This document shows positions 3,780 to 24,576 of a stretch of 32,000 nt of DNA, in pieces (the stretch's first letter is position 1; every line of letters begins with the position of its first letter). Below the pieces are notes generated by a model, which saw only the letters and a list, made by a program, of their open reading frames with translations, ran no database searches and had not been told where the DNA came from. The position numbers and the translations under genes are program-made. Source of the DNA: Cupriavidus necator (GTDB taxonomy: Bacteria; Pseudomonadota; Gammaproteobacteria; Burkholderiales; Burkholderiaceae); the NCBI RefSeq assembly GCF_016127575.1, contig NZ_CP066018.1, positions 2,220,001-2,252,000 on the forward strand, written 5' to 3'.

Positions 3780-5708
3780 GTGGTAGCCAGCATCCAGCCC
3801 CCGCCCTCTCCCCCGGCCCCTCTCCCGCAAGCGGGCGAGGGGAGCACCCAGCCAGGGGGAGGAGATGTCTTCGTCCTTCTCGACGACGCCACGGCCCCGG
3901 CGGCGCAAGCCGCATCACGCCTCTACACCGGCTTCATCCGTGAAGACGTCTTGCCCGCCGGCAGCGACATCGCGCAACTCGACACCATGCTTGCCGAAGG
4001 CTGGCGCCAGGGCTGGCATGCCACCCTGTTTGCCCCCTACGAATTCGGCGGCGCGCTGGTCGATGCCCCGGTGCACACCGGCAACGCGATGCCGTTCCAC
4101 GACGGCGCGCTGCGCCTGCTGTGGTTCCGCAACCTGCGCCGGCTCGATGCCGCGGCGGTCACGGCGTGGCTGCAGGCGAAAGCCGACCCCAGGCCGGCGG
4201 GCCTGATGGACGTGGCCTCCGATACCTCCCGCGAGGCATTCGACGATGCCATCGCCCGCATCCACCAGTGGATCGAAGCCGGCGACACCTACCAGGTCAA
4301 CTACACCCAGCGCCTGCACTTCGATGCCTTTGGCGACCCGGTGGCGCTGTATGCCGCGCTGCGCGCCGCGCAGCCGGTGCCGTATGGCGTGCTGGCCAGC
4401 CTGCCGGATCGTGCCACGGTGCTGTCGCTGTCGCCCGAGCTGTTCGTGCGCCACGACGGCCAGGGCCACATGCTGACCCGGCCGATGAAGGGCACCGCGC
4501 CGCGCTCGGGCGATGCCGTGCGCGATGCGCAGGCCGCCGCCGCGCTGGCCGCCGATGCCAAGAACCGCGCCGAGAACGTGATGATCGTCGACCTGCTGCG
4601 CAACGACCTGGGGCGCATCGCGCAGCCGGGCAGCGTGGCGGTGCCGGAGCGCTTTGCGGTGCAGCCGTTTGGCGCGGTGCTGCAGATGACCTCTACCGTC
4701 ACCGCGACGGCGCGGCCCGGCACGCGCTTTGGCGCGCTGATGGCGGCGCTGTTCCCGTGCGGCTCCATCACCGGCGCGCCCAAGCGGCGCACCATGCAGA
4801 TCATTGCCGAACTGGAAGGCACGCCGCGCGGGCTGTACACCGGGGCGATCGGCTGGATCGATGCGCCAACCGACGAAGGCACCGCGGGACCGTTCGCGCT
4901 GTCGGTGGCAATCCGCACGCTGGTACTGGCGCCTCTCGCGGATACCGGCCTGCGCGCGGGTGAAATGGGCGTGGGCGGCGGCATCGTCCATGACAGCGTC
5001 GCGGCGGAGGAGTTCGATGAATGCGGCTGGAAGGCGCGTTTCCTGACGCGGCACGATCCCGGTTTTACGCTGTTCGAAACCATGCGCGTGCAGGACGGCG
5101 AGTGCCTTTACCTGGCGCGGCATCTTGCGCGCATTGGCGCTTCGGCACATACGTTCGGCTTCGCTTTCGATGCCGATGCGGCACGCAACGCGGTGGCCGC
5201 GCAGGTAGCGCAGCTGGGCGCGGGGACATGGCGCCTGCGTATGAGCGTGGACAAGCGCGGCGCGCTCGCATTTGCCAGCGGCGCGGTGGCACCGATGCCG
5301 GCCGGTCCGGTCAGGATCGATATCGCCCCCGAGCCACTACCCGCCGCCGATCCGCTGCGCCGCCACAAGACCAGCGCGCGCGCAGTGTTCGATGCGGGCT
5401 GGCAGGCCGCCGAGCGTGCCGGTGGCTTTGACCTGCTGTTCTTCAACACGCGCGGTGAACTGCTGGAAGGCGGGCGCAGCTCGGTCTTCGTCCGTATCGA
5501 TGGCCGCTGGCTGACGCCGCCGCTGTCGGCTGACATCCTGCCCGGCGTGATGCGCGCGGTGGCGCTGGACGAGGGAGGGGCGGCCCTGGGCGCCCCCGGC
5601 GAAGTGGTGACGGAAGCGGTGATCACGCGCGCGATGCTCGCGCGCGCCGAGGCCATCGTCCTGGTCAACGCCTTGCGCGGCGCGATGCCGGCGACGCTGA
5701 GTCAGTAA
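3780..5708 (+). CDS. pabB: bifunctional aminodeoxychorismate synthase component I / aminodeoxychorismate lyase-like protein (PabB-PabC fusion)
   Basis: 642-aa ORF. The N-terminal ~420 aa are chorismate-binding (SRLYTGF, GDTYQVNYTQR, SPELFV, PMKGT, ENVMIVDLLRNDLGR, FPCGSITGAPKRRTMQII, GIGW). The C-terminal ~210 aa are fold-type IV aminotransferase/ADC-lyase-like (FTLFETMRV..., RRHKTSAR, ILPGVMR). The only in-frame start upstream of the conserved FVLLDD block is GTG 3780, so the start is uncertain. Confidence 0.85.
   Translation: MVASIQPPPSPPAPLPQAGEGSTQPGGGDVFVLLDDATAPAAQAASRLYTGFIREDVLPAGSDIAQLDTMLAEGWRQGWHATLFAPYEFGGALVDAPVHTGNAMPFHDGALRLLWFRNLRRLDAAAVTAWLQAKADPRPAGLMDVASDTSREAFDDAIARIHQWIEAGDTYQVNYTQRLHFDAFGDPVALYAALRAAQPVPYGVLASLPDRATVLSLSPELFVRHDGQGHMLTRPMKGTAPRSGDAVRDAQAAAALAADAKNRAENVMIVDLLRNDLGRIAQPGSVAVPERFAVQPFGAVLQMTSTVTATARPGTRFGALMAALFPCGSITGAPKRRTMQIIAELEGTPRGLYTGAIGWIDAPTDEGTAGPFALSVAIRTLVLAPLADTGLRAGEMGVGGGIVHDSVAAEEFDECGWKARFLTRHDPGFTLFETMRVQDGECLYLARHLARIGASAHTFGFAFDADAARNAVAAQVAQLGAGTWRLRMSVDKRGALAFASGAVAPMPAGPVRIDIAPEPLPAADPLRRHKTSARAVFDAGWQAAERAGGFDLLFFNTRGELLEGGRSSVFVRIDGRWLTPPLSADILPGVMRAVALDEGGAALGAPGEVVTEAVITRAMLARAEAIVLVNALRGAMPATLSQ
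3801..3842. repeat. REP-like GC-rich palindromic element
   Basis: CCCCTCTCCCGC (3817-3828), AA loop, GCGGGCGAGGGG (3831-3842): 11 of 12 positions complementary. It is preceded by a partial direct copy, CCGCCCTCTCCCCCGG (3801-3816). Its translation gives the PLPQAGEG / PLAGEGPGERAG-type peptides typical of translated REP units in Burkholderiaceae. Confidence 0.6.
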
Positions 5709-13410: not shown

Positions 13411-13601
13411 TAGTTGGGAAGGACGGGCGACTGCGCCGTTTGCGGCGGAATCTCGCCGGAAACTGGAAGCGGGGGGCCTCTATCCGTTAAAATTGCAATT
13501 CTACTGGACTCGCGCCCGCGTTCCGATGCCAAGCAACGGAAGCCGCGGTGGCCCGAGCGCCGGATTCCTCACTTTATTTCCTCCAGGACAAGCAGGTTCC
13601 C

Positions 13602-14654
13602 ATGAGCGCATCCCCGACCGCCGGCCAGGCAGGCCTTTCCTACCGCGACGCCGGTGTTGATATCGATGCCGGCGACGCACTGGTCGACCGCATCAAGCCG
13701 TTTGCCAAGCGCACCATGCGCGAAGGCGTGATGGCGGGCATCGGCGGGTTCGGTGCGCTGTTCGAACTGTCGAAGAAGTTCCAGGAGCCGGTGCTGGTAT
13801 CGGGCACCGACGGCGTGGGCACCAAGCTCAAGCTTGCGTTCCAGCTCAACCGCCATGACACCGTCGGCCAGGACCTGGTCGCCATGAGCGTCAACGACAT
13901 CCTGGTGCAGGGTGCCGAGCCGTTGTTCTTCCTCGACTACTTCGCCTGCGGCAAGCTGGACGTGGACACCGCCGCCACCGTGATCCAGGGCATCGCCCGC
14001 GGTTGCGAACTGGCCGGCTGCGCCCTGATCGGCGGCGAAACCGCCGAAATGCCCAGCATGTACCCGGACGGCGAATACGACCTGGCCGGCTTTGCCGTCG
14101 GTGCGGTCGAAAAGAAGAAGATCATCGACGGCAGCACCATCACCCCGGGCGACGTGGTGCTGGGCCTGGCTTCGTCGGGCGCGCACTCCAACGGTTACTC
14201 GCTGGTGCGCAAGATCATCGAAGTGGCCAGGCCGGACCTGAACGCCGACTTCCACGGCCAGCGCCTGCAGGACGCGATCATGGCGCCGACGCGCATCTAC
14301 GTGAAGCCGCTGCTGTCGCTGATCGAAACCCTGCCGGTCAAGGGCATGGCCCATATCACCGGCGGCGGCCTGACCGAGAATGTGCCGCGCGTGCTGGCGC
14401 AGGACGTCACCGCCGTGCTCAAGCGCGATGCCTGGACGCTGCCGCCGCTGTTCCAGTGGCTGCAGGCGCAGGGCCGCGTGGCCGACGACGAAATGCACCG
14501 CGTGTTCAACTGCGGCATCGGCATGGTCGTGATCGTGGCCAAGGAAGACGCTGAACGCGCCATCCGCCACCTGCAAGCGGCCGGCGAGGCCGTGTGGCAG
14601 ATCGGTGAGATCCGCGAACGCGCCGAGGGCGAGGCGCAGACCATCGTGGTCTGA
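13602..14654 (+). CDS. purM: phosphoribosylformylglycinamidine cyclo-ligase (AIR synthetase)
   Basis: 350 aa from ATG 13602: [24 protein letters not shown]..., [27 protein letters not shown]. The track start at 13548 is an upstream extension. Confidence 0.95.
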
Positions 14655-14681
14655 CGACACCGAAGCCTTCCGGCAAGAACG

Positions 14682-14713
14682 GCGCATGCCTTAGGGCATG
14701 CGCTTTTTTTTTT
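14682..14713 (+). terminator. rho-independent terminator after purM
   Basis: GCGCATGCC (14682-14690), TTAG loop, GGCATGCGC (14695-14703), then a run of 10 T (14704-14713). Confidence 0.85.
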
Positions 14714-14853
14714 CGTCCTGCGTACGGCTCATAAGGGTTTACCCAAAGGCTCACACCCGCTTTGTGCCCTGCGCTGGCCGAGTCCCGTTTTCGTGCATCG
14801 CACCAAAATCCAGCATGCATCTGCACCAAGTCTGATAAACAATATTTTGCTTG

Positions 14854-14882
14854 ATTGTATGGCGGTTTATCGCCTAATGTAC
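14854..14882 (+). promoter_or_regulatory. candidate GntR operator overlapping a sigma70-like promoter of the MFS-hydantoinase operon
   Basis: ATTGTATGGCGGTTTATCGCCTAATGTAC shares 21 of 29 positions with 20800-20828, including an identical 12-mer ATTGTATGGCGG and a second TGTA half-site at the same spacing. It overlaps TTGATT (14851-14856)-N18-TAATGT (14875-14880), inside an unusually AT-rich stretch 110 nt upstream of the MFS ATG. Confidence 0.45.
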
Positions 14883-14991
14883 TGAGCAAAGACGCAGCAC
14901 ACGTATGCCGCGTCCGGAGACAACGCCTCCGCGCGATGCCGGCAACCACCGGCGGCGCTGGGGGCAGGCCAGGACCATTGGAGGATCCACC

Positions 14992-16320
14992 ATGCAAGCA
15001 GTCAGCATCGACGCAGCGGCAAAAGGCGCGTCGGCCCAGAAGCAGTCCGTCGCGCGCGTCGCGGGGGCCAGCCTCGCCGGCACCACGCTCGAGTTCTACG
15101 ACCACTTCATCTACGGATCGGCCGCCGCGCTGGTCTTCCCCAAGCTGTTCTTCCCGCAGAGCGACCCGCTGACCGCGACGCTGCTGTCCTTTGCCAGCTA
15201 CGGCGTTGCCTTCGTGGCGCGGCCGCTGGGCGCGGCGATCTTCGGCCACTTCGGCGACAAGATGGGGCGCAAGTCCATCCTGATCATTACGCTGCTGATG
15301 ATGGGCCTGGCCACCTTCGGTATCGGCCTGCTGCCGACCTATGCCGCCGCGGGCGCGCTGGCGCCGGTGCTGCTGGTGCTGCTGCGCGTGGTGCAGGGCC
15401 TGGCGCTGGGCGGCGAATGGGGCGGGGCGGCGATCATGGTCAACGAGCTCGACCCTGAAGGGAAAAGGCGCGGCATCCTCGGCAGCCTGGTGCAGCTCGC
15501 CGCGCCGATCGGCCTGCTGCTTGCCAACGGCGTATTCGCGCTGGTGACCTGGCAGGTCTCGGAAGAAGCCTTCCTGAGCTGGGGCTGGCGCGTGCCGTTC
15601 CTGCTGTCGGCGCTGCTGGTGGGCGTTGGGCTCTACATCCGCTCCAACGTGCGTGAGTCCGGCATGTTCGAGAAGCTGGAGGAATCCCACGCCGAAGCGC
15701 GCGCGCCGATCATGGAAGTGCTGCGCAACTACAAGAAGCAGCTGCTGATCGCCTTTGGCGCGCGGCTGGGCGGCGATATCGCCTTCTACGTGTTCACGCT
15801 GTTCCTGCTGTACTTCGTGCCGACCAAGCTGGGCCTGCCCAAGAGCATCGCGCTCAATGCCGTGCTGCTGGGTGCGGTGGCGCAGATCCTGTTCATCCCG
15901 GTGGCCGGTTACCTGGCCGACCGCATCGGGCGTCGCCCGGTGCTGATGATCGGCGGCATCGGCGGTGCGGTGTGGGCCTTTGTCTTCTTCACGCTGGTCA
16001 AGACCGGCAGCCCGGCTTTGATCATGCTGGCCTCGTTCGTCGGCATGGTGCTGGTGTCGTTCATGTTCTCGCCGCTGGCGTCGTTCCTGCCGGAGCTGTT
16101 CGCCACCCGGGTGCGCGTGACCGGTGCCTCGCTCGGCTTCCAGTTCGCCGGTGTGTTCGGCGGCGCGCTGGCCCCGCTGATCGCGGTGGGCCTGCTCGAC
16201 CGCTTCGGCAGCACCGCGCCCGTTGCGCTGTACCTGGCGGCGGTGTGCGCGCTGATCGCAATCGCCGCGGCGGCCGCGCGGGAAACCAATCGCATGCACC
16301 TGTCCGACGCGGACCGCTGA
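14992..16320 (+). CDS. MFS transporter, metabolite:H+ symporter (MHS) family
   Basis: 442 aa from ATG 14992, with RBS GGAGGA at 14979-14984. The N-terminus LEFYDHFIYGSAAALVFPKLFF and the motifs GHFGDKMGRK / GYLADRIGRRP are typical of the KgtP/ProP/ShiA-type MHS family. It has 12 predicted TM stretches. Confidence 0.88.
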   Translation: MQAVSIDAAAKGASAQKQSVARVAGASLAGTTLEFYDHFIYGSAAALVFPKLFFPQSDPLTATLLSFASYGVAFVARPLGAAIFGHFGDKMGRKSILIITLLMMGLATFGIGLLPTYAAAGALAPVLLVLLRVVQGLALGGEWGGAAIMVNELDPEGKRRGILGSLVQLAAPIGLLLANGVFALVTWQVSEEAFLSWGWRVPFLLSALLVGVGLYIRSNVRESGMFEKLEESHAEARAPIMEVLRNYKKQLLIAFGARLGGDIAFYVFTLFLLYFVPTKLGLPKSIALNAVLLGAVAQILFIPVAGYLADRIGRRPVLMIGGIGGAVWAFVFFTLVKTGSPALIMLASFVGMVLVSFMFSPLASFLPELFATRVRVTGASLGFQFAGVFGGALAPLIAVGLLDRFGSTAPVALYLAAVCALIAIAAAAARETNRMHLSDADR

Positions 16321-16368
16321 ATGCGGACCACGGTGAGCGGCAGTAACAATCTTCTCGTGAGCAGTATC

Positions 16369-17805
16369 GTGAAACAGTTCGACCTGATCATCCGCAACGG
16401 CACCGTCGTGACCGCCAGCGACACCATGCAGTGCGATATCGGCATCGCCGGCGGGCGCATCGTACAGCTCGGCCACGACCTGGGCGAGGCCGCGCAGACC
16501 ATCGACGCCAGCGGCAAGCTGGTCTTGCCGGGCGGCGTCGATGCGCACTGCCACCTGGACCAGCCGATGCCGGACGGCCTCAGGATGGCTGACGACTTCG
16601 GCACCGGCTCGGTGTCGGCGGCCTGCGGCGGAACCACTACCGTGATCCCGTTCGCCGCGCAGGAGAAGGGCCATTCGCTGCGCGCCGCGGTGAACGACTA
16701 CCACCAGCGCGCCGATGGCAAGGCTGTGGTCGACTACGCCTTCCACCTGATCGTGGCCGATCCTACCGAGGCGGTGCTGCAGGACGAACTGCCGGGGCTG
16801 ATCCGCGAGGGCTATTCGTCGTTCAAGGTCTACATGACCTACGACGACCTCAAGCTGAACGACCGCGAGATCCTTGAGGTGCTGTCGGTGGCGCGCCAGG
16901 AGGGCGCGCTGGTGATGGTGCACGCCGAGAATTCGGACTGCATCGCCTGGCTGACCGAGAAGCTGGAAGCGGCGGGCAACACCGCGCCGAAGTTTCACGC
17001 GCTGGCCCGGCCGATGGCGATCGAGCGCGAGGCCACGCACCGCGCCATCACGTTCTCGGAGCTGGTCGACGTGCCGATCCTGATCGTCCATGTATCGGGC
17101 AAGGAAGCGGTGGAGCAGATCCGCTGGGCGCGCAACCGCGGTATGAAGATCTTTGCCGAGACCTGCCCGCAGTACCTGTTCCTGACTGCCGAAGACCTCG
17201 ACCAGCCCGGCTACCACGGCGCCAAGTGCGTGTGCAGCCCGCCGCCGCGCGACCGCAGCAACCAGGAAGTGATCTGGGACGGCCTGGCCGACGGCCTCTT
17301 CACCATTTTCTCGTCCGACCATGCACCGTTCCGCTACGAAGACGCGCAGGGCAAGAAGCCTGGCGGCAAGGAAGTCCCGTTCCAGTACATCCCCAACGGC
17401 ATCCCCGGCCTGGAAACGCGGCTGCCGCTGCTGTTCTCGGCTGGCGTGGTGGGCGGCCGCATCTCGGTCAACCAGTTCGTCGCGCTGACCTCGACCAACC
17501 CCGCCAAGCTCTACGGCCTGCATCCGCGCAAGGGCACCATTGCCATCGGCGCCGATGCCGACCTGGCGATCTGGGATCCGCAGCGTGAAGTGACGATCCG
17601 CAACGCCGACCTGCATCATGCTGTCGACTACACCCCGTATGAAGGCCTGCGCGTGACCGGCTGGCCGGTGACCACGCTGGTGCGCGGCAAGGTGGTGGCG
17701 CATGAGGGCGAGGTGCTGGCCGAGGCCGGCCACGGCCAGTTCCTGCCGTGCGGCCTGCCGGAGATGGCCAGGCCGCGCTATCGCACCTCGGGCGGCAGCC
17801 TGTGA
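16369..17805 (+). CDS. D-hydantoinase / dihydropyrimidinase (cyclic amidohydrolase)
   Basis: All catalytic elements are present: HxH (GVDAHCHL), carboxylated-Lys context (SFKVYMTY), VHAEN, LIVHVS and SSDHAPF. GTG 16369 gives MKQFDLIIRNGTVV, the usual N-terminus. ATG 16321, immediately after the MFS stop, is the alternative start. Confidence 0.88.
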   Translation: MKQFDLIIRNGTVVTASDTMQCDIGIAGGRIVQLGHDLGEAAQTIDASGKLVLPGGVDAHCHLDQPMPDGLRMADDFGTGSVSAACGGTTTVIPFAAQEKGHSLRAAVNDYHQRADGKAVVDYAFHLIVADPTEAVLQDELPGLIREGYSSFKVYMTYDDLKLNDREILEVLSVARQEGALVMVHAENSDCIAWLTEKLEAAGNTAPKFHALARPMAIEREATHRAITFSELVDVPILIVHVSGKEAVEQIRWARNRGMKIFAETCPQYLFLTAEDLDQPGYHGAKCVCSPPPRDRSNQEVIWDGLADGLFTIFSSDHAPFRYEDAQGKKPGGKEVPFQYIPNGIPGLETRLPLLFSAGVVGGRISVNQFVALTSTNPAKLYGLHPRKGTIAIGADADLAIWDPQREVTIRNADLHHAVDYTPYEGLRVTGWPVTTLVRGKVVAHEGEVLAEAGHGQFLPCGLPEMARPRYRTSGGSL

Positions 17806-17842
17806 CGGCAGCCTTGCCAATGCTTTGACTGAAACGACTGAC

Positions 17843-19237
17843 ATGGAACTGACCAACCGCCTGGACGCCACCACTATCGCGGCCCGCGTCGCCGCGGGCC
17901 GCCTCGATCCCGCCGAGGTGGTCGCCGCCTTCCAGGCTCGCATCGCGGCGCGCAATGACCAGCTCAACGCCGTGTTCGAGCAGCGCCAGGAGCTGGTCGA
18001 TGCCGACCTGGCGCAGCTGCGCGCGCGCCTGGCGCAGGGCGAGCGCCCGCTGCTGGCGGGCGTGCCGGTGATCGTCAAGGACGTGATCTGGAGCCAGGGC
18101 CGCCGCGTCACGCAGGGTTCGCAGCTGTATCGCGACTTCATTGCGCCCGCCGACGCGATCGCGGTCGAGCGCCTGCGCCAGGCCGGCGCGATCGTGCTCG
18201 GCATGGGCAATACCTCGGAGTTCGCCTGCAAGGGCCTGACCACCAACAAGGTCTACGGGCTGACGCGCCATCCGCTCGATGCCACGCTGACCGCGGGCGG
18301 CTCGTCTGGCGGCTGCGCGGTGGCGGTGGCGGCCGGCATGGCGCCGCTGGCGCTGGGCACCGACGGCGGCGGTTCCAGCCGGCGCCCGCCCGCGCATGCC
18401 GGCGTGGTCGGCTTCAAGCCTTCCTACGGCGCGATTCCCGATTCGGTCGGCTTTCCCCATGCCTTCAACGGCATCCAGGTGATTGCGCCGATCACGCGCA
18501 CGGTGGCCGATGCCGAGCTGATGTTCGAGGCGTTGGCCGGCGCCGATCCGCGCGATCCCGATACGCTGGGCTTCTCGCTTGGCGCCGCGCGCCCGCTGCA
18601 TACGCTGAAGATCGCGGTCAGCCCGCGCCTGGGCCTGGACACGCCGGTCGACGACGATGTCGCGCAGGCCTTCGAGCAGGCCGTGGCCCGGCTGCAGGGC
18701 GCGGGCCTGACCATCGAGCGTGCCGACCCGGCCTGGCCAAAGGGCGCCGACGAGGCCGCGCTGATGCCGCTGCAGCATGTCGGCCTGGCCAATCTCTACG
18801 GCGAGGCCTGGCGCCGCGACCCGGAGCTGTTCGATCCCGACGTGGCGCGCCAGATCGAGCGCGGGCTGGCCTGGAGCGGCGCCGACGTGGCGCGCGCGCG
18901 CGAAGCCAGCCACCAGATCGCGCTGGCCGTGGCCGGGTTCTTTACCCGCTATGACCTGCTGCTGTGCCCGACCACCCCGTGCGTGGCGTGGCGCAACGAC
19001 CGGCTCGGGCCGGAGCGGATCGGCGGCGTGGCGGTGGAGCCGCGCGCCCATGCGGTGTTCACGCCCTTCTTCAATCATGCGCTGGCGCCGGCCATTTCGG
19101 TGCCCTGCGGCCATGGCCGCGACGGGCTGCCGGCGGGCCTGCAGATCGCCGGCCCGCGCGGTGCCGACCGCAACGTGCTGGCCGCGGCCAGGCTGGCCGA
19201 AAGCGTGCTGGCGCCGCTGCTCAACCCTGCCGGATAA
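17843..19237 (+). CDS. amidase-signature (AS) family amidase
   Basis: 464 aa from ATG 17843, with PVIVKDVI (catalytic Lys context), GGSSGG and GTDGGGSSRRPPAH (Ser-cisSer-Lys triad region). The track start at 17702 overlaps the hydantoinase. Confidence 0.88.
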   Translation: MELTNRLDATTIAARVAAGRLDPAEVVAAFQARIAARNDQLNAVFEQRQELVDADLAQLRARLAQGERPLLAGVPVIVKDVIWSQGRRVTQGSQLYRDFIAPADAIAVERLRQAGAIVLGMGNTSEFACKGLTTNKVYGLTRHPLDATLTAGGSSGGCAVAVAAGMAPLALGTDGGGSSRRPPAHAGVVGFKPSYGAIPDSVGFPHAFNGIQVIAPITRTVADAELMFEALAGADPRDPDTLGFSLGAARPLHTLKIAVSPRLGLDTPVDDDVAQAFEQAVARLQGAGLTIERADPAWPKGADEAALMPLQHVGLANLYGEAWRRDPELFDPDVARQIERGLAWSGADVARAREASHQIALAVAGFFTRYDLLLCPTTPCVAWRNDRLGPERIGGVAVEPRAHAVFTPFFNHALAPAISVPCGHGRDGLPAGLQIAGPRGADRNVLAAARLAESVLAPLLNPAG

Positions 19238-19242
19238 CCGTC

Positions 19243-19986
19243 ATGCGAATCCTTGTCCTGAATCCCAATACCAGCGAAGGCATCACCGCGCGGCTGATGG
19301 CGGCGGCCACCGAGGCCGCGGCCCCCGGCACCGAGCTGGTGCCGCTGACCGCCAGCCGCGGCGTGCCCTATATCGCCACGCGCGCCGAGGCGCAGATCGG
19401 CGGCGCCATCGCGCTGGAGATGCTGGCCGAGCACCATGGCCAGTTCGACGCGGCCATCATCGCGGCCTTCGGCGACCCCGGCCTGATGGGCGCGCGCGAA
19501 CTGTTCGACCTGCCGGTGGTGGGCATGGCCGAGGCGGCGATGCTGTCGGCCTGCATGCTGGGCCGGCGCTTTGCCATCGTGACCTTTGCGCGGGCGCTGG
19601 GGCCCTGGTATGAGGAGTGCGTGGACATGCATGGCCTGCGCAGCCGGCTGGCCGGCATCCGCATGCTGGACGGCAGCTTTGCCTCGGTGTCGGACGTCCA
19701 GGAAGAGAAGGAAGCCGTGCTGGTGGAACTGGCCAACCGCGCCGTGGCGGAGGATGAAGCCGATGTGGTGATCCTGGCCGGCGCGCCGCTGGCCGGCCTG
19801 GCCGCGCGCGTGCGCGACCGCATTCCGGTGCCGGTGGTCGACCAGATGGCCGCCGCCGTCAAGCAGGCCGAGGCGCTGGTCGCGCTGCAGCCGCGCAAGG
19901 CCACCGCGGGCACGTTCCGCCGCCCGGATGCCAAGCCCACGCTGGGTTTGCCCGCGGCGCTGGCAGCGCGCATCGAGCACCGCTAA
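19243..19986 (+). CDS. Asp/Glu/hydantoin racemase family protein (HyuE/Dcg1-like), apparently lacking both catalytic cysteines
   Basis: 247 aa from ATG 19243, 5 nt after the amidase stop. MRILVLNPNTSEG..., AAFGDPGL and VVILAGAPLAG match the family fold motifs. The positions normally occupied by Cys (AC[FW]GDPG and LGCAGM, as I recall them) are Ala75 and Gly180. Confidence 0.8.
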   Translation: MRILVLNPNTSEGITARLMAAATEAAAPGTELVPLTASRGVPYIATRAEAQIGGAIALEMLAEHHGQFDAAIIAAFGDPGLMGARELFDLPVVGMAEAAMLSACMLGRRFAIVTFARALGPWYEECVDMHGLRSRLAGIRMLDGSFASVSDVQEEKEAVLVELANRAVAEDEADVVILAGAPLAGLAARVRDRIPVPVVDQMAAAVKQAEALVALQPRKATAGTFRRPDAKPTLGLPAALAARIEHR

Positions 19987-20014
19987 GCCACTTCGCCGCC
20001 GATGACGCCGCGGC

Positions 20015-20752
20015 TCAGACCGCGGCGAACACCGCTTCGAGATCGACCTTTTCCTCAGCCGGCAGCTCCAGCCGCAGCGTGCTTTCGACATGGCCGAGGT
20101 GCTCCGCCATCAGCCGCGCGGCGCGCTCGCCGTCGCCGGCTTCCAGCGCATCGACGATGTCGTCGTGTTCATGGTGCGGGCACGACGGCACCCCCGGTGC
20201 GTCATAGAGCGCGATGATCAGGCAGGTCAGCGAGCACAGCTCGCGCATGTACTTGCCCAGGTACTGGTTGCCGGTCATTTCCGCCAGCTTGCAGTGGAAC
20301 TCGCCCGACAGCCGGATGATGGCGCGGCGGTCGTTGCTGTCGCGCGCCTGCGCTTCCTGGCGCGTGGTTTCGCGCAGCGCGCGCACCCCCGGCGCGCCAA
20401 TGGCGCCGGCCAGGTCGCGCACCAGCGCGGGTTCCAGCAGGTGGCGTGAATGCAGCACCTGGCGCGCTTCGGCCACGCTCGGGCTGGAGACGAAGGTGCC
20501 GCGGTTGGGATGGACCGTCAGCACGCCTTCATGCGCCAGCTTGGCAAAGGCCAGCCGTACCTTGGTGCGGCTCACGCCGAACACGCCGCCCAGCTTTTCC
20601 TCGACCAGCTTGGTACCCGGCGGCAGCCGGTGCTCCCAGATCGCGGTCAGGATGCGGTCGGCGATTGCCTCGACCGACGCGCCGCGCGCGCTGTCCGTGT
20701 CGGTCTCATTGATACCGTCGGTGGCGGGCAGGTCGGCTTTGGTTTGTGGCAT
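20015..20752 (-). CDS. GntR family transcriptional regulator, FadR/FCD subfamily
   Basis: 245 aa with an N-terminal winged HTH (KLVEEKLGGVFGVSRTKVRLAFAKLAHEGVLTVHPNRGTFV) and a C-terminal all-helical FCD-like domain. It converges on the racemase homologue with a 28-nt gap. Confidence 0.88.
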   Translation of the reverse strand: MPQTKADLPATDGINETDTDSARGASVEAIADRILTAIWEHRLPPGTKLVEEKLGGVFGVSRTKVRLAFAKLAHEGVLTVHPNRGTFVSSPSVAEARQVLHSRHLLEPALVRDLAGAIGAPGVRALRETTRQEAQARDSNDRRAIIRLSGEFHCKLAEMTGNQYLGKYMRELCSLTCLIIALYDAPGVPSCPHHEHDDIVDALEAGDGERAARLMAEHLGHVESTLRLELPAEEKVDLEAVFAAV

Positions 20753-20799: not shown

Positions 20800-20828
20800 A
20801 TTGTATGGCGGCTTGCCATCAAGTGTAT
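20800..20828. promoter_or_regulatory. second copy of the candidate GntR operator, upstream of the gntR gene
   Basis: ATTGTATGGCGGCTTGCCATCAAGTGTAT lies 48-76 nt upstream of the gntR ATG (20752, minus strand). Its first 12 nt are identical to 14854-14865. Internal inverted repeat ATGGC/GCCAT. On the minus strand the motif's reverse complement ends in TACAAT, a -10-like hexamer. Confidence 0.45.
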
Positions 20829-20856: not shown

Positions 20857-21357
20857 TTACTTCGCGCCGAGCTTGTCCAGCGCCTCGCCGGTCACGCGGC
20901 AGATGCGCCAGTCGGGCAGCACGTCCGCACCCATGGCCTCGTAGAAGTCGATCGACGGCTGGTTCCAGTCCAGCACCGACCATTCGAAGCGGCCACAGCC
21001 GCGCTCGACCGCCAGCGCCGCGAGGTGCTTGAGCAGCGCCTTGCCCAGGCCGTGGCCGCGCCAGGCCGGATCGACATAGAGGTCTTCCAGGTACAGGCCG
21101 GGCCTGGCCAGGAAGGTTGAGAAATTGTGGAAGAAGAGGGCAAAGCCGACGGCTTGCCGGCCGCCATCGGTGTCGACTTCGACCAGCACCGCTTCGGCAT
21201 GCGGCGTGGCGCCGAACAGTGCATCCTGGATCTTCTGCGGCGTGGCTTCGACAATATGCGTCAGCTTTTCGTATTCGGCCAGCGCCAGGATCAGGTTGAA
21301 CAGCGTCTCGCTGTCGGCGGCGGTGGCGGGGCGGAGCGTGAAGGCGGGCTTGGACAT
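20857..21357 (-). CDS. GNAT family N-acetyltransferase (diamine/SSAT-like)
   Basis: 166 aa from ATG 21357, with GGAGAG RBS upstream. Acetyl-CoA motif A is present: LEDLYVDPAWRGHGLGKALL. Confidence 0.85.
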   Translation of the reverse strand: MSKPAFTLRPATAADSETLFNLILALAEYEKLTHIVEATPQKIQDALFGATPHAEAVLVEVDTDGGRQAVGFALFFHNFSTFLARPGLYLEDLYVDPAWRGHGLGKALLKHLAALAVERGCGRFEWSVLDWNQPSIDFYEAMGADVLPDWRICRVTGEALDKLGAK

Positions 21358-21438
21358 GCTGGGTCGGCTCTCCGGCAAACAGGAATTCGGAATTATCGCC
21401 TGTGCGTCACTTGCCGCGCCAGCTTGCATGCAATCGGG

Positions 21439-22407
21439 TCAGTGCCCGAAGTCCGCCAGCCTGCGCACCTGGTCGACATACCCGGGCGCCAGGCAATCCA
21501 CCACCAGCCGCTCGGGCGTGCTGCGCAGCCAGGTCAGCTGGCGCTTGCACAGCTGGCGCGTGGCGGCGATGCCGCGCTCGCGCATGGTGGCAAAGTCTGC
21601 GTCGCCGTCCAGGTACTCCCATACCTGCCGGTAGCCGACGCAGCGGATCGACGGCAAGCCCGGATGCAGGTCGCCGCGCCGGCGCAGCCGCTCGACTTCC
21701 TCGATAAAGCCGTTGGCCAGCATCGCGTCATAACGCTGAGCGATGCGCGCGTGCAGCGCCAGGCGGTCCGATGGCTCCAGCGCAATCACGCGGAAGCGCT
21801 GGTCCGCCGCGCCGGCAAAGGTGCGCCCCTCGGCCTGGCGCGCCAGCAGTGCCGACATCGGCTGGCCGGACAGGCGGTGGATCTCCAGCGCGCGCTGGAT
21901 GCGCTGCGCGTCATTGGGCGCGAGCCGCGCCGCGGTGACCGGGTCGACCTCGGCCAGCATCGCATGCAGCGCCGGCCAGCCGCGCTCGGCGGCAAGCTGG
22001 TCCAGCTCCGCGCGCAGCGCGGCATCGGCCTGGGGCAGGTCATTGAGCCCCTGCGTCAGTGCCTTGTAGTAGAGCATGGTGCCGCCGACGATCAGCGGCA
22101 CATGGCCGCGCGCGCGGATCTGTGCGATCAGCCGTTCGGCATCGGTGACGAACTGCGCCGCGGAGTAGCTGTCGGCCGGGTCGATGATGTCGATCAGGTG
22201 GTGCGGCGCGGCTGCAAGTTCTTCGCGCGTGGGCTTGGCGGTGCCGATATCCATCTCGCGGTACACCAGCGCCGAATCCAGGCTGATGATCTCCACCGGC
22301 GCGTCGGCCGCCAGCGCCAGCGCGGCCGCGGTCTTGCCCGAGGCGGTGGGGCCGAGCAGGCAGACCACGGGCGGATGCGTGGCGGAATCGTGGGGTACGG
22401 CGGACAT
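21439..22407 (-). CDS. miaA: tRNA dimethylallyltransferase
   Basis: 322 aa with P-loop GPTASGKT, then [16 protein letters not shown] and HHLIDI. Confidence 0.93.
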
Positions 22408-22440: not shown

Positions 22441-24423
22441 TTATTGCCCGCGCAGGAACAGCCGGTCCAGCTCGGTCACGGTCAGTTGCACCCAGGTCGG
22501 GCGGCCGTGGTTGCACTGGTCGGCGCGCTCGGTCTGCTCCATCTGGCGCAAGAGCGCATTCATTTCCTCGAGCGTGAGCTTGCGGTTGGCGCGCACCGCG
22601 CTGTGGCAGGCGAGGGTGGCCAGCAGTTCGTTGCGGCGCTCGGCCAGCACGCGCGAGCCGCCGTAGGCATGCAGGTCGCGCAACACATCGCGCGCCAGCG
22701 CTTCGGCATCGGCCTGCTGCAGCAGCGCCGGCACCGCTCGCACCGCGAGAGTGGTGGGCGACACCGGGGCGATATCGAAGCCCAGCAGCGTCAGTGTCTC
22801 CTGGTGTTCTTCGGCCACGCCGATCTCGACCGGGCTGCCGGGCAGCGTGACCGGGATCAGCAGCGGCTGCACCGCGAGGTCGCGCGCGTCCAGGCCGGCC
22901 TTGATCTGCTCATACAGGATGCGTTCGTGCGCGGCATGCATATCCACCAGCACCAGCCCGCGCGCGTTCTGCGCCAGCACATAGATGCCATGCAGCTGGG
23001 CGATGGCGTAGCCGAGCGGGTGGTCGTCGGGGGCGTCGGCAGGATCGGCAAAGCCGGCGCGCGCGGCCGGCGGCAGGCGGTCCAGCAGGCCGGGCGGGTC
23101 GTCGGCGCGTGCCGCCTGCGCGTCGGCCAGCCAGGCCGGCGCTTGCGCCGGGGTGCCGGGCATGGCGCCATACGGCCGCGCTGCCGGTGCGGCGGCATCG
23201 CGCACCATGCCCAGGTAGGCCTGGCGTGGCTGGGCGATGCCGAGTTCGGTCTGGCGTGCCGCGGAATAATTGATCCACTGGCCGCCACCACCACTGCCGC
23301 CGCCAAAGCCCGGCCGTGCGCCGCCCGCCGGTGTCGCGCCGCCAGACGGCAGGGTGATCTCGCCGTCGGCATCGGTATGCAGGCTGTCGCCGTTCCCGCC
23401 GGCCTGCCGCGCCAGGCAACGCTGCACCGCGTGGTAGACGAACTGGTGCACGGCGCGCGATTCACGGAAGCGCACTTCGATCTTCGACGGGTGCACGTTG
23501 ACGTCGACCATCTCCGGCGGCAGGTCCAGGCACAGCACATAGGACGGGAAGCGGTCGCCGTGCAGCACGTCCTGGTAGGCGCTGCGCACCGCGTGATTGA
23601 GCAGCTTGTCGCGCACGAAGCGGCCGTTGACAAAGAAGTACTGCTGGTCCGGCCGCCCGCGCGAGGCGGTGGGCAGCCCGGCAAAGCCATACAGGTGCAG
23701 CGTGTCGGCCTCTTCGTCCAGTGGCAGGCGGGCGCGGGCAAAGTCATTGCCCAGCACCTGCGCGGTACGGGTGGCGACGTCGCCGGCATTCCAGTGCTCC
23801 AGCGGCTTGCCGTTGTGGTGGACCGAGATGGTCACGTCGGGCCGCGCCAGCGCCACGCGCCGTACCATCTCCAGGCAGTGCCCCAGCTCGGTTTGCTCCG
23901 ATTTGAGGAACTTTCGGCGCGCTGGCGTGTTGAAGTAGAGGTGCTGCACGTCGACGGTGGTGCCGACCCCGCCCGAGGCAGGCTGCACCGTGCCGGTATC
24001 GGCGCTGACCTGGGTGGCATGGGCATCGGCCGCGGTGCGGCTGGTCAGGGCCAGCTGGGACACCGAGGCGATCGAGGCCAGGGCCTCGCCGCGGAAGCCC
24101 AGCGTCAGCACTGATTCCAGTTCGTCGAGCGACGCAATCTTGCTGGTGGCGTGGCGCATCAGCGCGACCGGCAACTCTGCCGCAGGGATGCCGCAGCCGT
24201 TGTCCGTGATGACGATGCGCCGCACGCCGCCTTCTTCCAGCCGGATGCCGAGCTGCGTGGCGCCGGCGTCGAGCGCGTTTTCCAGCAACTCCTTGACCAC
24301 CGAGGCCGGTCGTTCCACCACTTCGCCGGCGGCGATCTGGCTGATGAGCTGGTCCGGCAGCGGCCGGATCGGGCGCGGCTGCTGGGTGGTGCGCAGGGCG
24401 GTGCTGGAGGCGGAGGCAGGCAT
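22441..24423 (-). CDS. mutL: DNA mismatch repair protein MutL
   Basis: GHKL ATPase N-terminus (IAAGEVVERPASVVKELLENALDAGA, DNGCGI), a Pro/Ala/Gly-rich linker, and a C-terminal dimerisation domain ending CNHGRPT. ATG 24423 is preferred; GTG 24450 is the alternative. Confidence 0.93.
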   Translation of the reverse strand: MPASASSTALRTTQQPRPIRPLPDQLISQIAAGEVVERPASVVKELLENALDAGATQLGIRLEEGGVRRIVITDNGCGIPAAELPVALMRHATSKIASLDELESVLTLGFRGEALASIASVSQLALTSRTAADAHATQVSADTGTVQPASGGVGTTVDVQHLYFNTPARRKFLKSEQTELGHCLEMVRRVALARPDVTISVHHNGKPLEHWNAGDVATRTAQVLGNDFARARLPLDEEADTLHLYGFAGLPTASRGRPDQQYFFVNGRFVRDKLLNHAVRSAYQDVLHGDRFPSYVLCLDLPPEMVDVNVHPSKIEVRFRESRAVHQFVYHAVQRCLARQAGGNGDSLHTDADGEITLPSGGATPAGGARPGFGGGSGGGGQWINYSAARQTELGIAQPRQAYLGMVRDAAAPAARPYGAMPGTPAQAPAWLADAQAARADDPPGLLDRLPPAARAGFADPADAPDDHPLGYAIAQLHGIYVLAQNARGLVLVDMHAAHERILYEQIKAGLDARDLAVQPLLIPVTLPGSPVEIGVAEEHQETLTLLGFDIAPVSPTTLAVRAVPALLQQADAEALARDVLRDLHAYGGSRVLAERRNELLATLACHSAVRANRKLTLEEMNALLRQMEQTERADQCNHGRPTWVQLTVTELDRLFLRGQ

Positions 24424-24429
24424 CCGGCG

Positions 24430-24435
24430 ATTATA
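24430..24435 (-). promoter_or_regulatory. perfect TATAAT (-10) on the minus strand, directly upstream of the mutL ATG
   Basis: Plus-strand ATTATA at 24430-24435 reads TATAAT on the minus strand, followed by CGCCGG and then ATG (24423). I found no convincing -35. Confidence 0.35.
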
Positions 24436-24576
24436 CGTGGACGCCCGCACGGAGTCGGACGCGCAAAGGCGCCGCAGGTGACGGATTGGCGCGGCGGCTC
24501 TTGTATGATTCAGGCCAAGGCGGCCCAGGCCGCATCGGACAGAACGCAGTCAACCAAACCATCAACGGGGAACGAC

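Follow-up and report, generated by a model that had tools for sequence, protein, structure and literature searches.

Between purM (13548 to 14654) and the miaA (21439 to 22407) and mutL (22441 to 24450) genes, the analyzed stretch of Cupriavidus necator DNA (32,000 nucleotides, referred to here as the window) contains a compact cassette of five genes. Four of them lie on the plus strand and encode an MFS transporter of the metabolite:H+ symporter (MHS) type (14992 to 16320; 442 aa), a D-hydantoinase/dihydropyrimidinase-family cyclic amidohydrolase that follows with a gap of 0 nt (HYD; 16321 to 17805; 494 aa), an amidase-signature (AS) amidase after a gap of 37 nt (AMI; 17843 to 19237; 464 aa), and an Asp/Glu/hydantoin-racemase-fold protein after a gap of 5 nt (RAC; 19243 to 19986; 247 aa). 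The fifth gene, gntR (20015 to 20752, minus strand; 245 aa), encodes a GntR-family regulator with an FCD ligand-binding domain and converges on the RAC gene across 28 nt. Our re-examination agreed with the gene calls, coordinates, and gaps of the original prediction, including the 0 to 48 nt given for the first gap, since an alternative GTG start of HYD at 16369 leaves 48 nt. The transporter gene has a ribosome-binding site (GGAGGA) 6 nt 5' of the ATG at 14992; a start at the ATG at 14905 is unlikely, the orthologues being 441 to 442 aa long.

The upstream border of the cassette is the intrinsic terminator of purM (14681 to 14714, plus strand), which has a 10-bp stem with 7 GC pairs, a 4-nt loop, and a T10 tract; its fold (-22.8 kcal/mol, z = -3.95) was matched in stability by none of 200 shuffled sequences. 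Of the two good terminators proposed originally, only this one is canonical. The other, a GC-rich hairpin assigned to neither strand at the convergent RAC/gntR junction (20006 to 20027; 8-bp stem, 6-nt loop), has no T tract, overlaps the gntR stop codon, folded with z values of -2.2 (plus strand) and -1.1 (minus strand), and was not reported by the terminator scan of the window. Terminator-like matches inside the operon occur at chance level (5 observed vs 4.3 expected). The block does separate housekeeping genes, as had been noted, although a GNAT gene (20857 to 21429) between gntR and miaA was left unmentioned. Base composition does not point to a recent insertion (GC content, 69.5% for the cassette vs 67 to 68% for the flanks).

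A putative sigma-70 operon promoter is located at 14851 to 14880 on the plus strand (-35 TTGATT, 14851 to 14856; 18-nt spacer; -10 TAATGT, 14875 to 14880), with hexamers that were picked by eye at a place where the promoter scan made no call. It is overlapped by a candidate GntR operator, ATTGTATGGCGG (14854 to 14865), and a second copy of this 12-mer, as written on the plus strand, lies at 20800 to 20811, at a sigma-70-like match that the promoter scan placed before gntR (20829 to 20800, minus strand). The window has exactly these two copies, one at each promoter, whereas two copies occurred in 0 of 100 shuffles. Besides, Cupriavidus, Aminobacter, Caldimonas, and Xenophilus all keep CTTGATTGTATGGCGGTT 5' of the transporter gene, and the operator 11-mer is restricted, among the 88 loci compared, to cassettes of the type in the C. 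necator window. Eleven Cupriavidus loci keep the second copy 5' of gntR. In Xenophilus, Caldimonas, Piscinibacter, and Variovorax, a second copy lies in the divergent intergenic region, at the end nearer gntR; it is exact in Xenophilus and near-exact or exact in the other three. The gntR product matched PF00392 and PF07729 in the profile search and reached no NCBIfam equivalog cutoff, and its orthologues (63 to 96% identity) travel with the cassette in convergent or divergent orientation. Judging from these sequence patterns, it is very likely that the cassette genes are co-regulated.

HYD exceeded the cutoffs of two models named "dihydropyrimidinase" (NF009941, 857.9 vs 647; TIGR02033, 568.1 vs 393) but not that of the allantoinase model (271 bits vs 358), and its closest solved relative is the Ralstonia pickettii D-hydantoinase 1NFG (E = 4e-136). 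The metal and carboxy-lysine motifs were said to be complete, and all six residues (H76, H78, K169, H201, H257, and D333) were indeed found. The cassette orthologues have in common two HYD subfamily signatures, SPPPRD and SDHxPFRY(D/E)D, and these loop signatures are absent from 1NFG. AMI was likewise confirmed as a Ser-cisSer-Lys amidase by its match to PF01425 (307 bits) and its intact triad motifs, K79, GGSSGG (S154/S155), and GTDGGGSSRRP (S178/S179); the K79, S154, and S178 motifs align with those of aryl acylamidase 4YJ6. None of the NCBIfam models reached its cutoff with AMI (best score, 324.9 vs 506), and the AtzE and allophanate-hydrolase models gave 201 to 215 bits. The transporter matched PF07690 and PF00083 in the profile search and scored 428.5 bits against the MHS model TIGR00883, just below the cutoff of 443.45; the nearest named model was that of the shikimate transporter (346 bits vs a cutoff of 538). 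Its orthologues (79 to 98% identity) are adjacent in 21 loci. An anionic substrate had been argued from membership in the MHS family, but this argument is weak because related cassettes use importers of unrelated MFS or ABC types.

RAC matched PF01177 (155 bits) and none of the models in the NCBIfam library. Its only close solved relatives are two allantoin racemases (E = 1e-33; 34 to 36% identity), and its AlphaFold2 model (pLDDT 83) also had allantoin racemases as the top Foldseek matches (TM-score, 0.83 to 0.88). Alignment with the Klebsiella allantoin racemase 3QVJ placed Ala75 at Cys79 and Gly180 at Cys184, and Ala and Gly were found at the two catalytic positions in all 80 RAC loci, which bears out the earlier description as a Cys-less racemase homologue. 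With both catalytic thiols missing, a racemase step is hypothetical. NPNT, FGDPG, EAA, and PVVD, the motifs of the substrate pocket, do not vary. The Pseudomonas fluorescens allantoin racemase 5LFD has Gly at the first canonical Cys and was deposited as an active racemase. The RAC family comprises 171 clusters at E <= 1e-30, and 49 of 103 full-length representatives carry the A/G pattern, which extends to about 40% identity.

RAC, and not HYD or AMI, is the conserved hub of an alpha- and betaproteobacterial cassette family, a point that the original prediction overlooked. It is the most conserved member (74 to 83% identity across classes vs 54 to 62% for HYD) and is adjacent in every cassette. 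We counted the genes lying no more than 10 kb from RAC in 80 genomes: HYD orthologues occurred in 58, AMI orthologues (56 to 99% identity; median centre-to-centre distance, 1.1 kb) in 47, arylmalonate-decarboxylase-like proteins in 35, and PuuE-like hydrolases in 17. The complete MHS-HYD-AMI-RAC set was present in 21 of the 80 loci, and the cassette is thus a real co-conserved unit in which AMI is one of several interchangeable partners of RAC. The compact cassette of Bradyrhizobium and Ensifer consists of MFS, AMDase-like, GntR, RAC, and HYD genes with a 4-nt RAC/HYD overlap and has no amidase; therefore, the RAC-HYD core does not strictly need AMI as its second step. Bosea has, as the alternative partner, a homologue of PuuE allantoinase (E = 2e-88 to 1Z7A; 317 bits against TIGR03212, under the cutoff of 424.6). 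PuuE-like, AMI, and RAC genes were found together in Hyphomicrobiales loci, and a ureidoglycolate-lyase-like gene (98.7 bits vs a cutoff of 160) was found in a locus of this order. At Bradyrhizobium locus L039, RAC and an MFS-AMI pair adjoin urate-pathway genes, including a true PuuE and OHCU-decarboxylase fusion (548 bits vs 424.6), a true HIU hydrolase (124.9 bits vs 87.45), and a second HIUase-like gene (85.2); these ureide-gene neighbors come from genera other than that of the window. The alphaproteobacterium Aminobacter has the same cassette with 83 to 90% identity, which indicates transfer between classes, and in C. gilardii and C. cauae the cassette lies in a different genomic context. 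Both observations support the accessory character suggested for it, and a mobile one.

We infer that this self-regulated five-gene operon probably uses two successive hydrolyses to degrade a small ring compound rich in nitrogen. Tentatively, and somewhat short of even confidence, we read it as a catabolic operon that is induced by its substrate, a small cyclic amide of the hydantoin/ureide type, and serves mainly nitrogen salvage. The GntR/FCD protein would repress its own promoter and that of the operon via ATTGTATGGCGG, with the substrate or an intermediate lifting the repression, and the MHS symporter would import the compound. RAC, which lacks the thiol pair of allantoin/hydantoin racemases but retains their pocket motifs, might bind the ring compound and prepare or present it, whether by non-thiol epimerization of an acidic C-H, by other carbanion chemistry, or as a noncatalytic partner. 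Ring opening by the D-hydantoinase-family enzyme would yield an N-carbamoyl (ureido) acid, and the AS amidase would split the terminal ureido amide of this acid into ammonia and carbamate, the latter then losing CO2. No canonical carbamoylase was found in five related loci with Pfam annotation, so that a different second hydrolase is needed, and AMI may thereby stand in for the missing carbamoylase. AS amidases such as allophanate hydrolase, AtzE, and ureidomalonase hydrolyze terminal ureido amides, although plain carboxamides are more typical substrates, which fits a half-amide instead, and we know of no N-carbamoyl-amino-acid amidohydrolase in the AS family. The comparative context favors ureide/hydantoin-type compounds at least as much as imides, because the relatives of RAC are allantoin racemases, some partners are PuuE-like, and urate-pathway genes occur in some loci. 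An anionic cyclic imide or a carboxy-hydantoin, the more specific chemistry proposed originally, is a possible substrate at most. D-hydantoinases hydrolyze cyclic imides too, and the standard allantoin route is presumably already present in C. necator. Neither the searchable literature nor the NCBIfam curated models assign a substrate to the cassette, consistent with the earlier view that the gene set is not a known defined system.

The close rival of the hydantoin/ureide reading is a cyclic-imide/half-amide route, the main idea of the original prediction, which we consider possible but doubtful. HYD would serve as the imidase for a substituted compound of the succinimide or glutarimide type, AMI would convert the half-amide to a dicarboxylate and NH3, and RAC would handle the stereocentre beside the imide carbonyl. 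R-CO-NH2 is a typical target of AS amidases, the AMI triad is intact, and the route would need nothing beyond these enzymes, as suits a compact cassette; in Blastobacter, imidase subunits of about 35 kDa and a half-amidase of about 48 kDa are reported, sizes that match the cassette proteins. A cyclic imidase with an AS-type amidase is genetically proven in nicotinate catabolism of Aspergillus nidulans, where HxnM/HxnN convert 3-hydroxypiperidine-2,6-dione via alpha-hydroxyglutaramate to alpha-hydroxyglutarate, and known imidases belong to the family of the PuuE-like partners (PMC9304392). These partners, which fall below the PuuE cutoff and co-occur with AMI and RAC in Hyphomicrobiales, thus count for imides. 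Nevertheless, HYD scores above a D-hydantoinase equivalog cutoff, the nearest relatives of RAC act on hydantoins, true urate-pathway genes at some loci favor ureides, and amidase-less cassettes would end at the half-amide. Simple imides, moreover, are neutral, a misfit with the anion argument drawn from the MHS family.

The names of the two models that HYD passes would also suit an ordinary reductive pyrimidine or generic hydantoin variant, with HYD as the dihydropyrimidinase of the cell, AMI in place of beta-ureidopropionase, and RAC incidental. We regard this as very unlikely: neither dihydropyrimidine dehydrogenase nor an NCS1 permease was found in the window or the annotated related loci, the cassette HYDs carry their own loop signatures, and an incidental RAC does not accord with its conservation and constant adjacency. 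Rather improbable, too, is a noncatalytic RAC, whether as a subunit for ligand binding or scaffolding or as a decayed pseudoenzyme, with HYD and AMI alone doing the chemistry. The replacement of both cysteines in every locus, conservation well above that of the enzyme partners, as expected with several interaction surfaces, and the overlap with HYD in Bradyrhizobium and Ensifer are consistent with such a subunit, whereas the invariant pocket and 5LFD, deposited as active, argue for catalysis, and decay is excluded by the 171 clusters and the wide A/G pattern.

Among known systems, the cassette shares its overall logic with the hydantoin-utilization (hyu) clusters known from Arthrobacter, Agrobacterium, Sinorhizobium, and Pseudomonas, which combine a hydantoinase, the hydantoin racemase HyuE, an N-carbamoyl-amino-acid amidohydrolase, and an NCS1 permease. 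Both would import, (racemize), open the ring, and deamidate, and the cassette likewise has a D-hydantoinase-family ring opener, an adjoining PF01177 protein, and another hydrolase, together with an importer and a regulator of its own. However, its second hydrolase is of the AS family rather than a nitrilase-superfamily or M20 carbamoylase, its permease is an MHS-type MFS protein rather than NCS1, and its racemase homologue lacks both catalytic cysteines; a nitrilase-type or M20 carbamoylase and an NCS1 permease are absent from the window and the five Pfam-annotated loci, so the difference first proposed stands. Ureide modules comprise an allantoin racemase (HpxA/AllR), an allantoinase (PuuE/HpxB or AllB), an allantoate amidohydrolase, and a GntR regulator, as in Klebsiella hpxSAB. 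The cassette resembles them in the nearness of RAC to allantoin racemases, in the PuuE-homologue partners of related cassettes, and in the true PuuE-OHCU decarboxylase and HIUase genes adjoining RAC and AMI in some Bradyrhizobium. It differs in that HYD scores as a D-hydantoinase (568 bits) and not as an allantoinase, RAC has neither cysteine, and the amidase is of the AS rather than the M20 family; no cassette protein reached the cutoff of an NCBIfam ureide-enzyme model.

The imidase and half-amidase of Blastobacter sp. A17p-4 have reportedly been described only biochemically, and to our knowledge their genes have never been tied to a cluster. The cyclic imide pathway of this strain and of A. 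nidulans (HxnM/HxnN) shares with the cassette a cyclic amidohydrolase followed by a Ser-cisSer-Lys amidase, and its two hydrolytic steps release NH3 and a dicarboxylate (PMC9304392). Known imidases are of the PuuE/polysaccharide-deacetylase type, whereas the cassette ring opener is a binuclear-metal hydantoinase, and the cassette has RAC, whereas no racemase-like partner is described for cyclic imide systems. In the oxidative pyrimidine pathway of Rhodococcus erythropolis, barbiturase is followed by ureidomalonase, an AS-family enzyme that acts on a ureido acid. Barbiturase has the cyanuric-acid-hydrolase fold and HYD the hydantoinase fold, and that pathway is not known to include a racemase-like protein, unlike the cassette with its RAC. 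Nevertheless, both proceed from a ring-opening amidohydrolase to an AS-family amidase, and the R. erythropolis pathway offers the best precedent for the action of an AS enzyme on a ureide.

Five cassette genes were delineated by an ORF listing combined with a GC3-based gene call. The plus strand carries genes for an MHS-type MFS transporter (14992-16320; 442 amino acids [aa]), the D-hydantoinase-family enzyme HYD (16321-17805; 494 aa), the amidase-signature (AS) amidase AMI (17843-19237; 464 aa), and RAC, a thiol-less Asp/Glu/hydantoin-racemase homologue (19243-19986; 247 aa), and the minus strand carries a GntR/FCD regulator gene (20015-20752; 245 aa). A GGAGGA ribosome-binding site precedes the transporter start at 14992 by 6 nt, and this start agrees with the orthologue lengths of 441 to 442 aa. 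The gaps of 0, 37, and 5 nt between the plus-strand genes were just as originally predicted, and an alternative GTG start of HYD gives a transporter/HYD gap of 48 nt. A 1247-aa antisense ORF lying over the transporter and HYD genes (14506-18249, minus strand) was rejected as a high-GC artefact by its codon-position GC pattern.

The family calls of the original prediction were confirmed with Pfam and NCBIfam, that of MHS at a score just under the cut-off of its model. HYD scored 568.1 bits against the NCBIfam D-hydantoinase equivalog TIGR02033 (cut-off, 393) and 857.9 bits against the NCBIfam subfamily model NF009941 (cut-off, 647), and the metal and carboxy-lysine motifs expected to be intact were indeed found (H76, H78, K169, H201, H257, and D333). 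By model scores and ligand residues, HYD is a binuclear-metal cyclic amidohydrolase of the kind represented by the hyu hydantoinase. AMI matched PF01425 with 307 bits and reached no curated NCBIfam cut-off, and its Lys-cisSer-Ser triad is kept in alignment with 4YJ6 (K79; S154/S155 in GGSSGG; S178 in GTDGGGSSRRP); its domain, triad, and GGSS[GS]G motif are those of the amidase signature family. The transporter scored 428.5 bits against TIGR00883 (MHS, TC 2.A.1.6; cut-off, 443.45), which ranked far ahead of ShiA (346) and ProP (242), with PF07690/PF00083 as Pfam assignments. The regulator combines a winged helix-turn-helix domain (PF00392, 56.6 bits) with a C-terminal FCD domain (PF07729, 85.9 bits), as defines the FadR/FCD subfamily of the GntR family, and also lies below every curated NCBIfam cut-off. 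An ErtD (ergothioneine/hydantoin-5-propionate) assignment was rejected at 253 bits against a cut-off of 650.

The remainder of the 32 kb consists of housekeeping genes only. On the 5' side are dnaK, dnaJ, a putative pabB-pabC fusion, panB, folK, pcnB, a histidinol phosphatase gene, hda, an AI-2E permease gene, and purM, and on the 3' side a GNAT acetyltransferase gene, miaA, mutL, a SirB1-like gene, murJ, a DUF3579 gene, an ornithine/aspartate carbamoyltransferase-family gene that is probably argF, ppnP, and murB. The fusion-like gene is a single 642-aa ORF (3780-5708, plus strand) with chorismate-binding (PabB-like) and aminotransferase class IV (PabC-like) domains, by which it looks like pabB joined to pabC. 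The GNAT gene (PF00583; 20857-21429, minus strand), absent from the original prediction, separates gntR from miaA; most loci of the C. necator clade show it in synteny with miaA-mutL, and elsewhere it does not accompany the cassette. Of the two good terminators that had been proposed as cassette boundaries, that of purM (14681-14714) is excellent (z = -3.95), whereas the second is a GC hairpin without a T-tract at the RAC/gntR junction, straddling the gntR stop codon. The GC content of the cassette (69.5%) is close to that of its flanks (67-68%), and thus composition gives no sign of recent import; a foreign-DNA signal was rejected, as neither GC nor GC3 was anomalous.

RAC matched PF01177 with 155 bits, indicating the Asp/Glu racemase fold, and had zero NCBIfam matches; its sequence is 100% identical to entries from C. 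necator. The top structural matches of its confident AlphaFold2 model (pLDDT 83) were two solved allantoin racemases (5LG5 and 3QVJ; TM-score 0.83-0.88, 34-36% identity), followed by hydantoin racemase, OpaE, and arylmalonate decarboxylase. The fold of the two-thiol racemases (HyuE/HpxA type) is present, and their catalytic Cys pair is absent: in alignment with Klebsiella allantoin racemase (KpAllR), Cys79 corresponds to Ala75 and Cys184 to Gly180. All 80 family loci analyzed have Ala/Gly at these two columns, and the pocket motifs NPNT, FGDPG, EAA, and PVVD are kept and invariant. Among 1.84 billion representatives at the 50% identity level, 171 clusters were found with E <= 1e-30. Among the 103 nearest full-length representatives, Cys/Cys was found in just 3, Ala/Gly in 49, and the first Cys only in 16; thiol loss in the RAC clade is therefore an old, selected trait and not decay. 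The Pseudomonas fluorescens allantoin racemase (PfAllR; 5LFD/5LG5) has Gly at the column of the first Klebsiella catalytic Cys, and since 5LFD was deposited as an allantoin racemase, loss of one Cys is compatible with activity. We know of no precedent among characterised members for loss of both canonical Cys residues.

Other candidate catalytic thiols were considered. Cys104 of RAC is invariant; it was rejected as a relocated catalytic residue and is probably structural, because in the model it belongs to the last part of helix 95-106 and is remote from the active site, which is formed by strand ends. Column 136 (window 19648-19650) is Cys in KpAllR, PfAllR, and most alphaproteobacterial RACs, whereas all 21 cassettes of the window's type have Leu there, so that residue 136 was rejected as a general catalytic residue. 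Fusions of RAC-like proteins were uninformative for function, being either tandem canonical-Cys double racemases or probable merged gene calls (FCD+RAC and RAC+amidohydrolase) among the long representatives; the metagenomic relatives P0171, P0192, P0217, and P0268 each join two Asp/Glu-racemase domains in tandem within a single protein, for the most part with the canonical Cys. Besides, a second, distant Cys-less racemase-fold clade of 33-36% identity (AFGDPG ... GGGPLA) was observed in three of the related loci (L036 397-, L049 17744-, and L055 2301-). Its members in Bosea and Hyphomicrobiales each adjoin a PuuE-like gene and a PotA/PotD-type ABC importer, and in L049 and L055 the same cluster includes a ureidoglycolate-lyase-like gene scoring below the cut-off.

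At least 515 relatives were obtained in a single scan across 185,579 species genomes, and the best 80 loci (74-99% identity to RAC) were analyzed by tblastn and all-against-all clustering. Within 10 kb of RAC, a HYD orthologue (54-98% identity) occurred in 58 of these 80 loci, an AMI orthologue (56-99% identity) in 47, an arylmalonate-decarboxylase/EutA-like protein (AMD) with an AMDase-like Gly/Cys pattern in 35, and a PuuE-like hydrolase of the polysaccharide-deacetylase fold (E = 2e-88 to 1Z7A for the Bosea protein) in 17, while 6 loci, mostly short contigs, had none of the four. Conservation of the gene neighborhood, raised in the original prediction, was found in the form of the full set MHS-HYD-AMI-RAC plus GntR (type A) in 21 of the best 80 loci, from Cupriavidus, Variovorax, Comamonas, Xenophilus, Caldimonas, Piscinibacter, and Aminobacter. 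Type B (MFS-AMD-GntR-RAC-HYD), in which RAC and HYD overlap by 4 nt, occurs in Bradyrhizobium, Ensifer, and Microvirga, and type C (RAC, then the PuuE-like gene and an ABC importer, then GntR-HYD) in Bosea; larger Bradyrhizobium islands comprise HYD-AMD, RAC, two amidases, and ABC and MFS importers. Between Cupriavidus and Bradyrhizobium, identity is 74-83% for RAC, 54-62% for HYD, and 56-61% for AMI. Judged by these sequence comparisons, RAC is the common denominator of the cassettes and by far their most conserved member.

In the C. necator clade, the cassette is invariably flanked by purM on one side and GNAT-miaA-mutL on the other. C. gilardii and C. cauae carry it at another location, adjoining another module of PuuE-like, TctC, amidohydrolase, GntR, and RAC-like genes. 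Two loci of the alphaproteobacterial genus Aminobacter (L022 and L024; 5.5-11.7 kb) hold a complete MHS-HYD-AMI-RAC-GntR set 77-91% identical to the C. necator proteins, and the L022 proteins are 83-90% identical to those of Cupriavidus. For these families, such identity greatly exceeds what is usual between alpha- and betaproteobacteria and indicates a recent inter-class transfer; no transposase or integrase flanks the Aminobacter or C. gilardii copies.

The window contains exactly two copies of the 12-mer ATTGTATGGCGG, a count reached in 0 of 100 shuffles. One copy (14854-14865), 5' of the transporter gene, overlaps a promoter-like TTGATT-N18-TAATGT, and the other (20800-20811) lies in the gntR upstream region, where a scan gave a promoter-like site. 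The element is kept 5' of the transporter gene in Cupriavidus spp., Aminobacter, Caldimonas, and Xenophilus, and a copy stands at the gntR end of divergent intergenic regions in Caldimonas, Piscinibacter, Xenophilus, and Variovorax; across 88 loci, its 11-mer core is confined to type-A cassettes and to these two places. The candidate operators contain a TTGTAT half-site, which is typical of the FadR/FCD subfamily of GntR regulators. This good phylogenetic-footprint evidence suggests that the GntR/FCD protein autoregulates and controls the operon, and the candidate operator shared by operon and gntR argues for co-expression of the cassette. A sigma-54 promoter reading of TGGCGG-N-CGC was rejected, as the spacing is one off and the element is not conserved. 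A second element, GTGCATCGCACCAAAATCCAGCATGCATCTGCACCAA, is situated 5' of the operator/promoter (14795-14838) and kept in the Cupriavidus loci; it has two copies of GCACCA at a distance of about 24 nt and might bind a further regulator, perhaps for nitrogen control.

Related loci offer a lead on the substrate class. In photosynthetic Bradyrhizobium such as L039, RAC, an ABC importer, and an MFS-AMI pair directly adjoin three urate-pathway genes (L039 15156-15509 and 18662-20451), and L042, L047, L054, L061, L065, and L071 likewise have RAC and an MFS-AMI pair beside such genes. A fusion of PuuE allantoinase (548 bits versus 424.6) with OHCU decarboxylase (152 versus 96) and a 5-hydroxyisourate hydrolase (HIUase; 124.9 bits versus 87.45) in L039 are bona fide, and a second HIUase-like paralogue scores slightly below the cut-off (85.2 bits versus 87.45). 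HIUase-family genes were present in 15 of the 80 RAC loci, and a Hyphomicrobiales locus has ureidoglycolate-lyase-like and guanine/8-oxoguanine-deaminase-like amidohydrolase genes, both below cut-offs. The urate-gene neighborhood is a lead and not proof, because the true PuuE and HIUase genes belong only to related Bradyrhizobium loci and not to the C. necator window.

We propose that derepression by GntR would allow import of the substrate, that RAC would work on this cyclic compound or together with it ahead of ring opening, that HYD would open the ring, and that AMI would hydrolyze the resulting acid at its terminal amide. RAC's relatives, the PuuE-like partners, and the urate-gene neighborhoods favor a hydantoin- or ureide-type substrate, with AMI acting on the ureido group like allophanate hydrolase or ureidomalonase, and we adopt this reading tentatively, at somewhat less than an even chance. 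A cyclic-imide/half-amide route is nearly as good, even if on the doubtful side: plain carboxamides are the preferred substrates of AS amidases, and imides are among the compounds that D-hydantoinases accept. Moreover, a PuuE-type imidase paired with an AS amidase is genetically proven in Aspergillus nicotinate catabolism (PMC9304392). That an MHS transporter speaks for an anionic substrate, as originally argued, proved a weak point, because the importers of sister cassettes are unrelated. It is unlikely that the pathway is an ordinary pyrimidine one. The window genes include neither a carbamoylase nor a dihydropyrimidine dehydrogenase nor an NCS1 permease.

As to RAC, its activity cannot be derived from the sequence, and a complex-forming, non-catalytic protein would be compatible with the data, as its extreme conservation and translational coupling to HYD would fit such a role. 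It is conceivable, albeit rather improbable, that the Ala/Gly RAC clade is both an enzyme class of a new kind, such as an epimerase, decarboxylase, or isomerase that works without a thiol at C5 of a hydantoin-like ring, and the obligatory first step of an undescribed pathway, widespread in soil bacteria, for a natural ureide-like N-heterocycle. If so, the hydantoinase, AS amidase, AMD-like, and PuuE-like partners would be exchangeable downstream modules, and a large group of "D-hydantoinases" would gain a natural function.

To our knowledge, bacterial D-hydantoinases are used industrially and yet have no known physiological role, their natural substrates being a long-standing question. The cassette is a tractable entry to this role, as C. 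necator H16 is genetically amenable, the defined regulator and candidate operator could serve for an inducer search, and the enzyme set is compact enough for reconstitution. The protein that anchors the whole family of cassettes has the racemase fold and is highly conserved, yet both of its catalytic thiols are lost. Solving the cassette could add an AS "decarbamoylase" or half-amidase and a new Asp/Glu-racemase-fold activity to the biocatalysis toolbox and could reveal a nitrogen source of rhizosphere bacteria.

No substrate or pathway is assigned to the cassette in the full-text literature searched, outside which important older biochemical papers fall, so that prior knowledge is possible, and RAC, AMI, and the regulator go unnamed in the curated NCBIfam models (June 2026). 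Literature on an Aminobacter hydantoinase, P. putida nitrogen RB-TnSeq, and Aminobacter metformin was rejected as prior description, as other clusters were concerned. The cassette shares with the classical hyu cluster a hydantoinase of the binuclear-metal cyclic amidohydrolase family and differs from it in three of four defining features, namely, carbamoylase type, permease type, and two-thiol racemase. The departure from hyu clusters anticipated by the original prediction is thus borne out in the window: the sole second hydrolase is the PF01425 protein AMI instead of a carbamoylase, and the transporter is an MHS-type MFS protein instead of an NCS1 permease. A nitrilase-superfamily or M20 N-carbamoyl-amino-acid amidohydrolase was found neither in the window nor in five Pfam-annotated related loci. 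The enzymes also differ from those of the ureide (allantoin) pathway, as HYD scores 270.8 bits on TIGR03178, under the allantoinase cut-off of 357.85, and neither RAC nor AMI reaches any NCBIfam cut-off for an allantoin enzyme. With the imidase/half-amidase pathway, the cassette fold classes are compatible, a likeness at the fold level only. By analogy, we infer that the cassette works like a hyu or ureide module.
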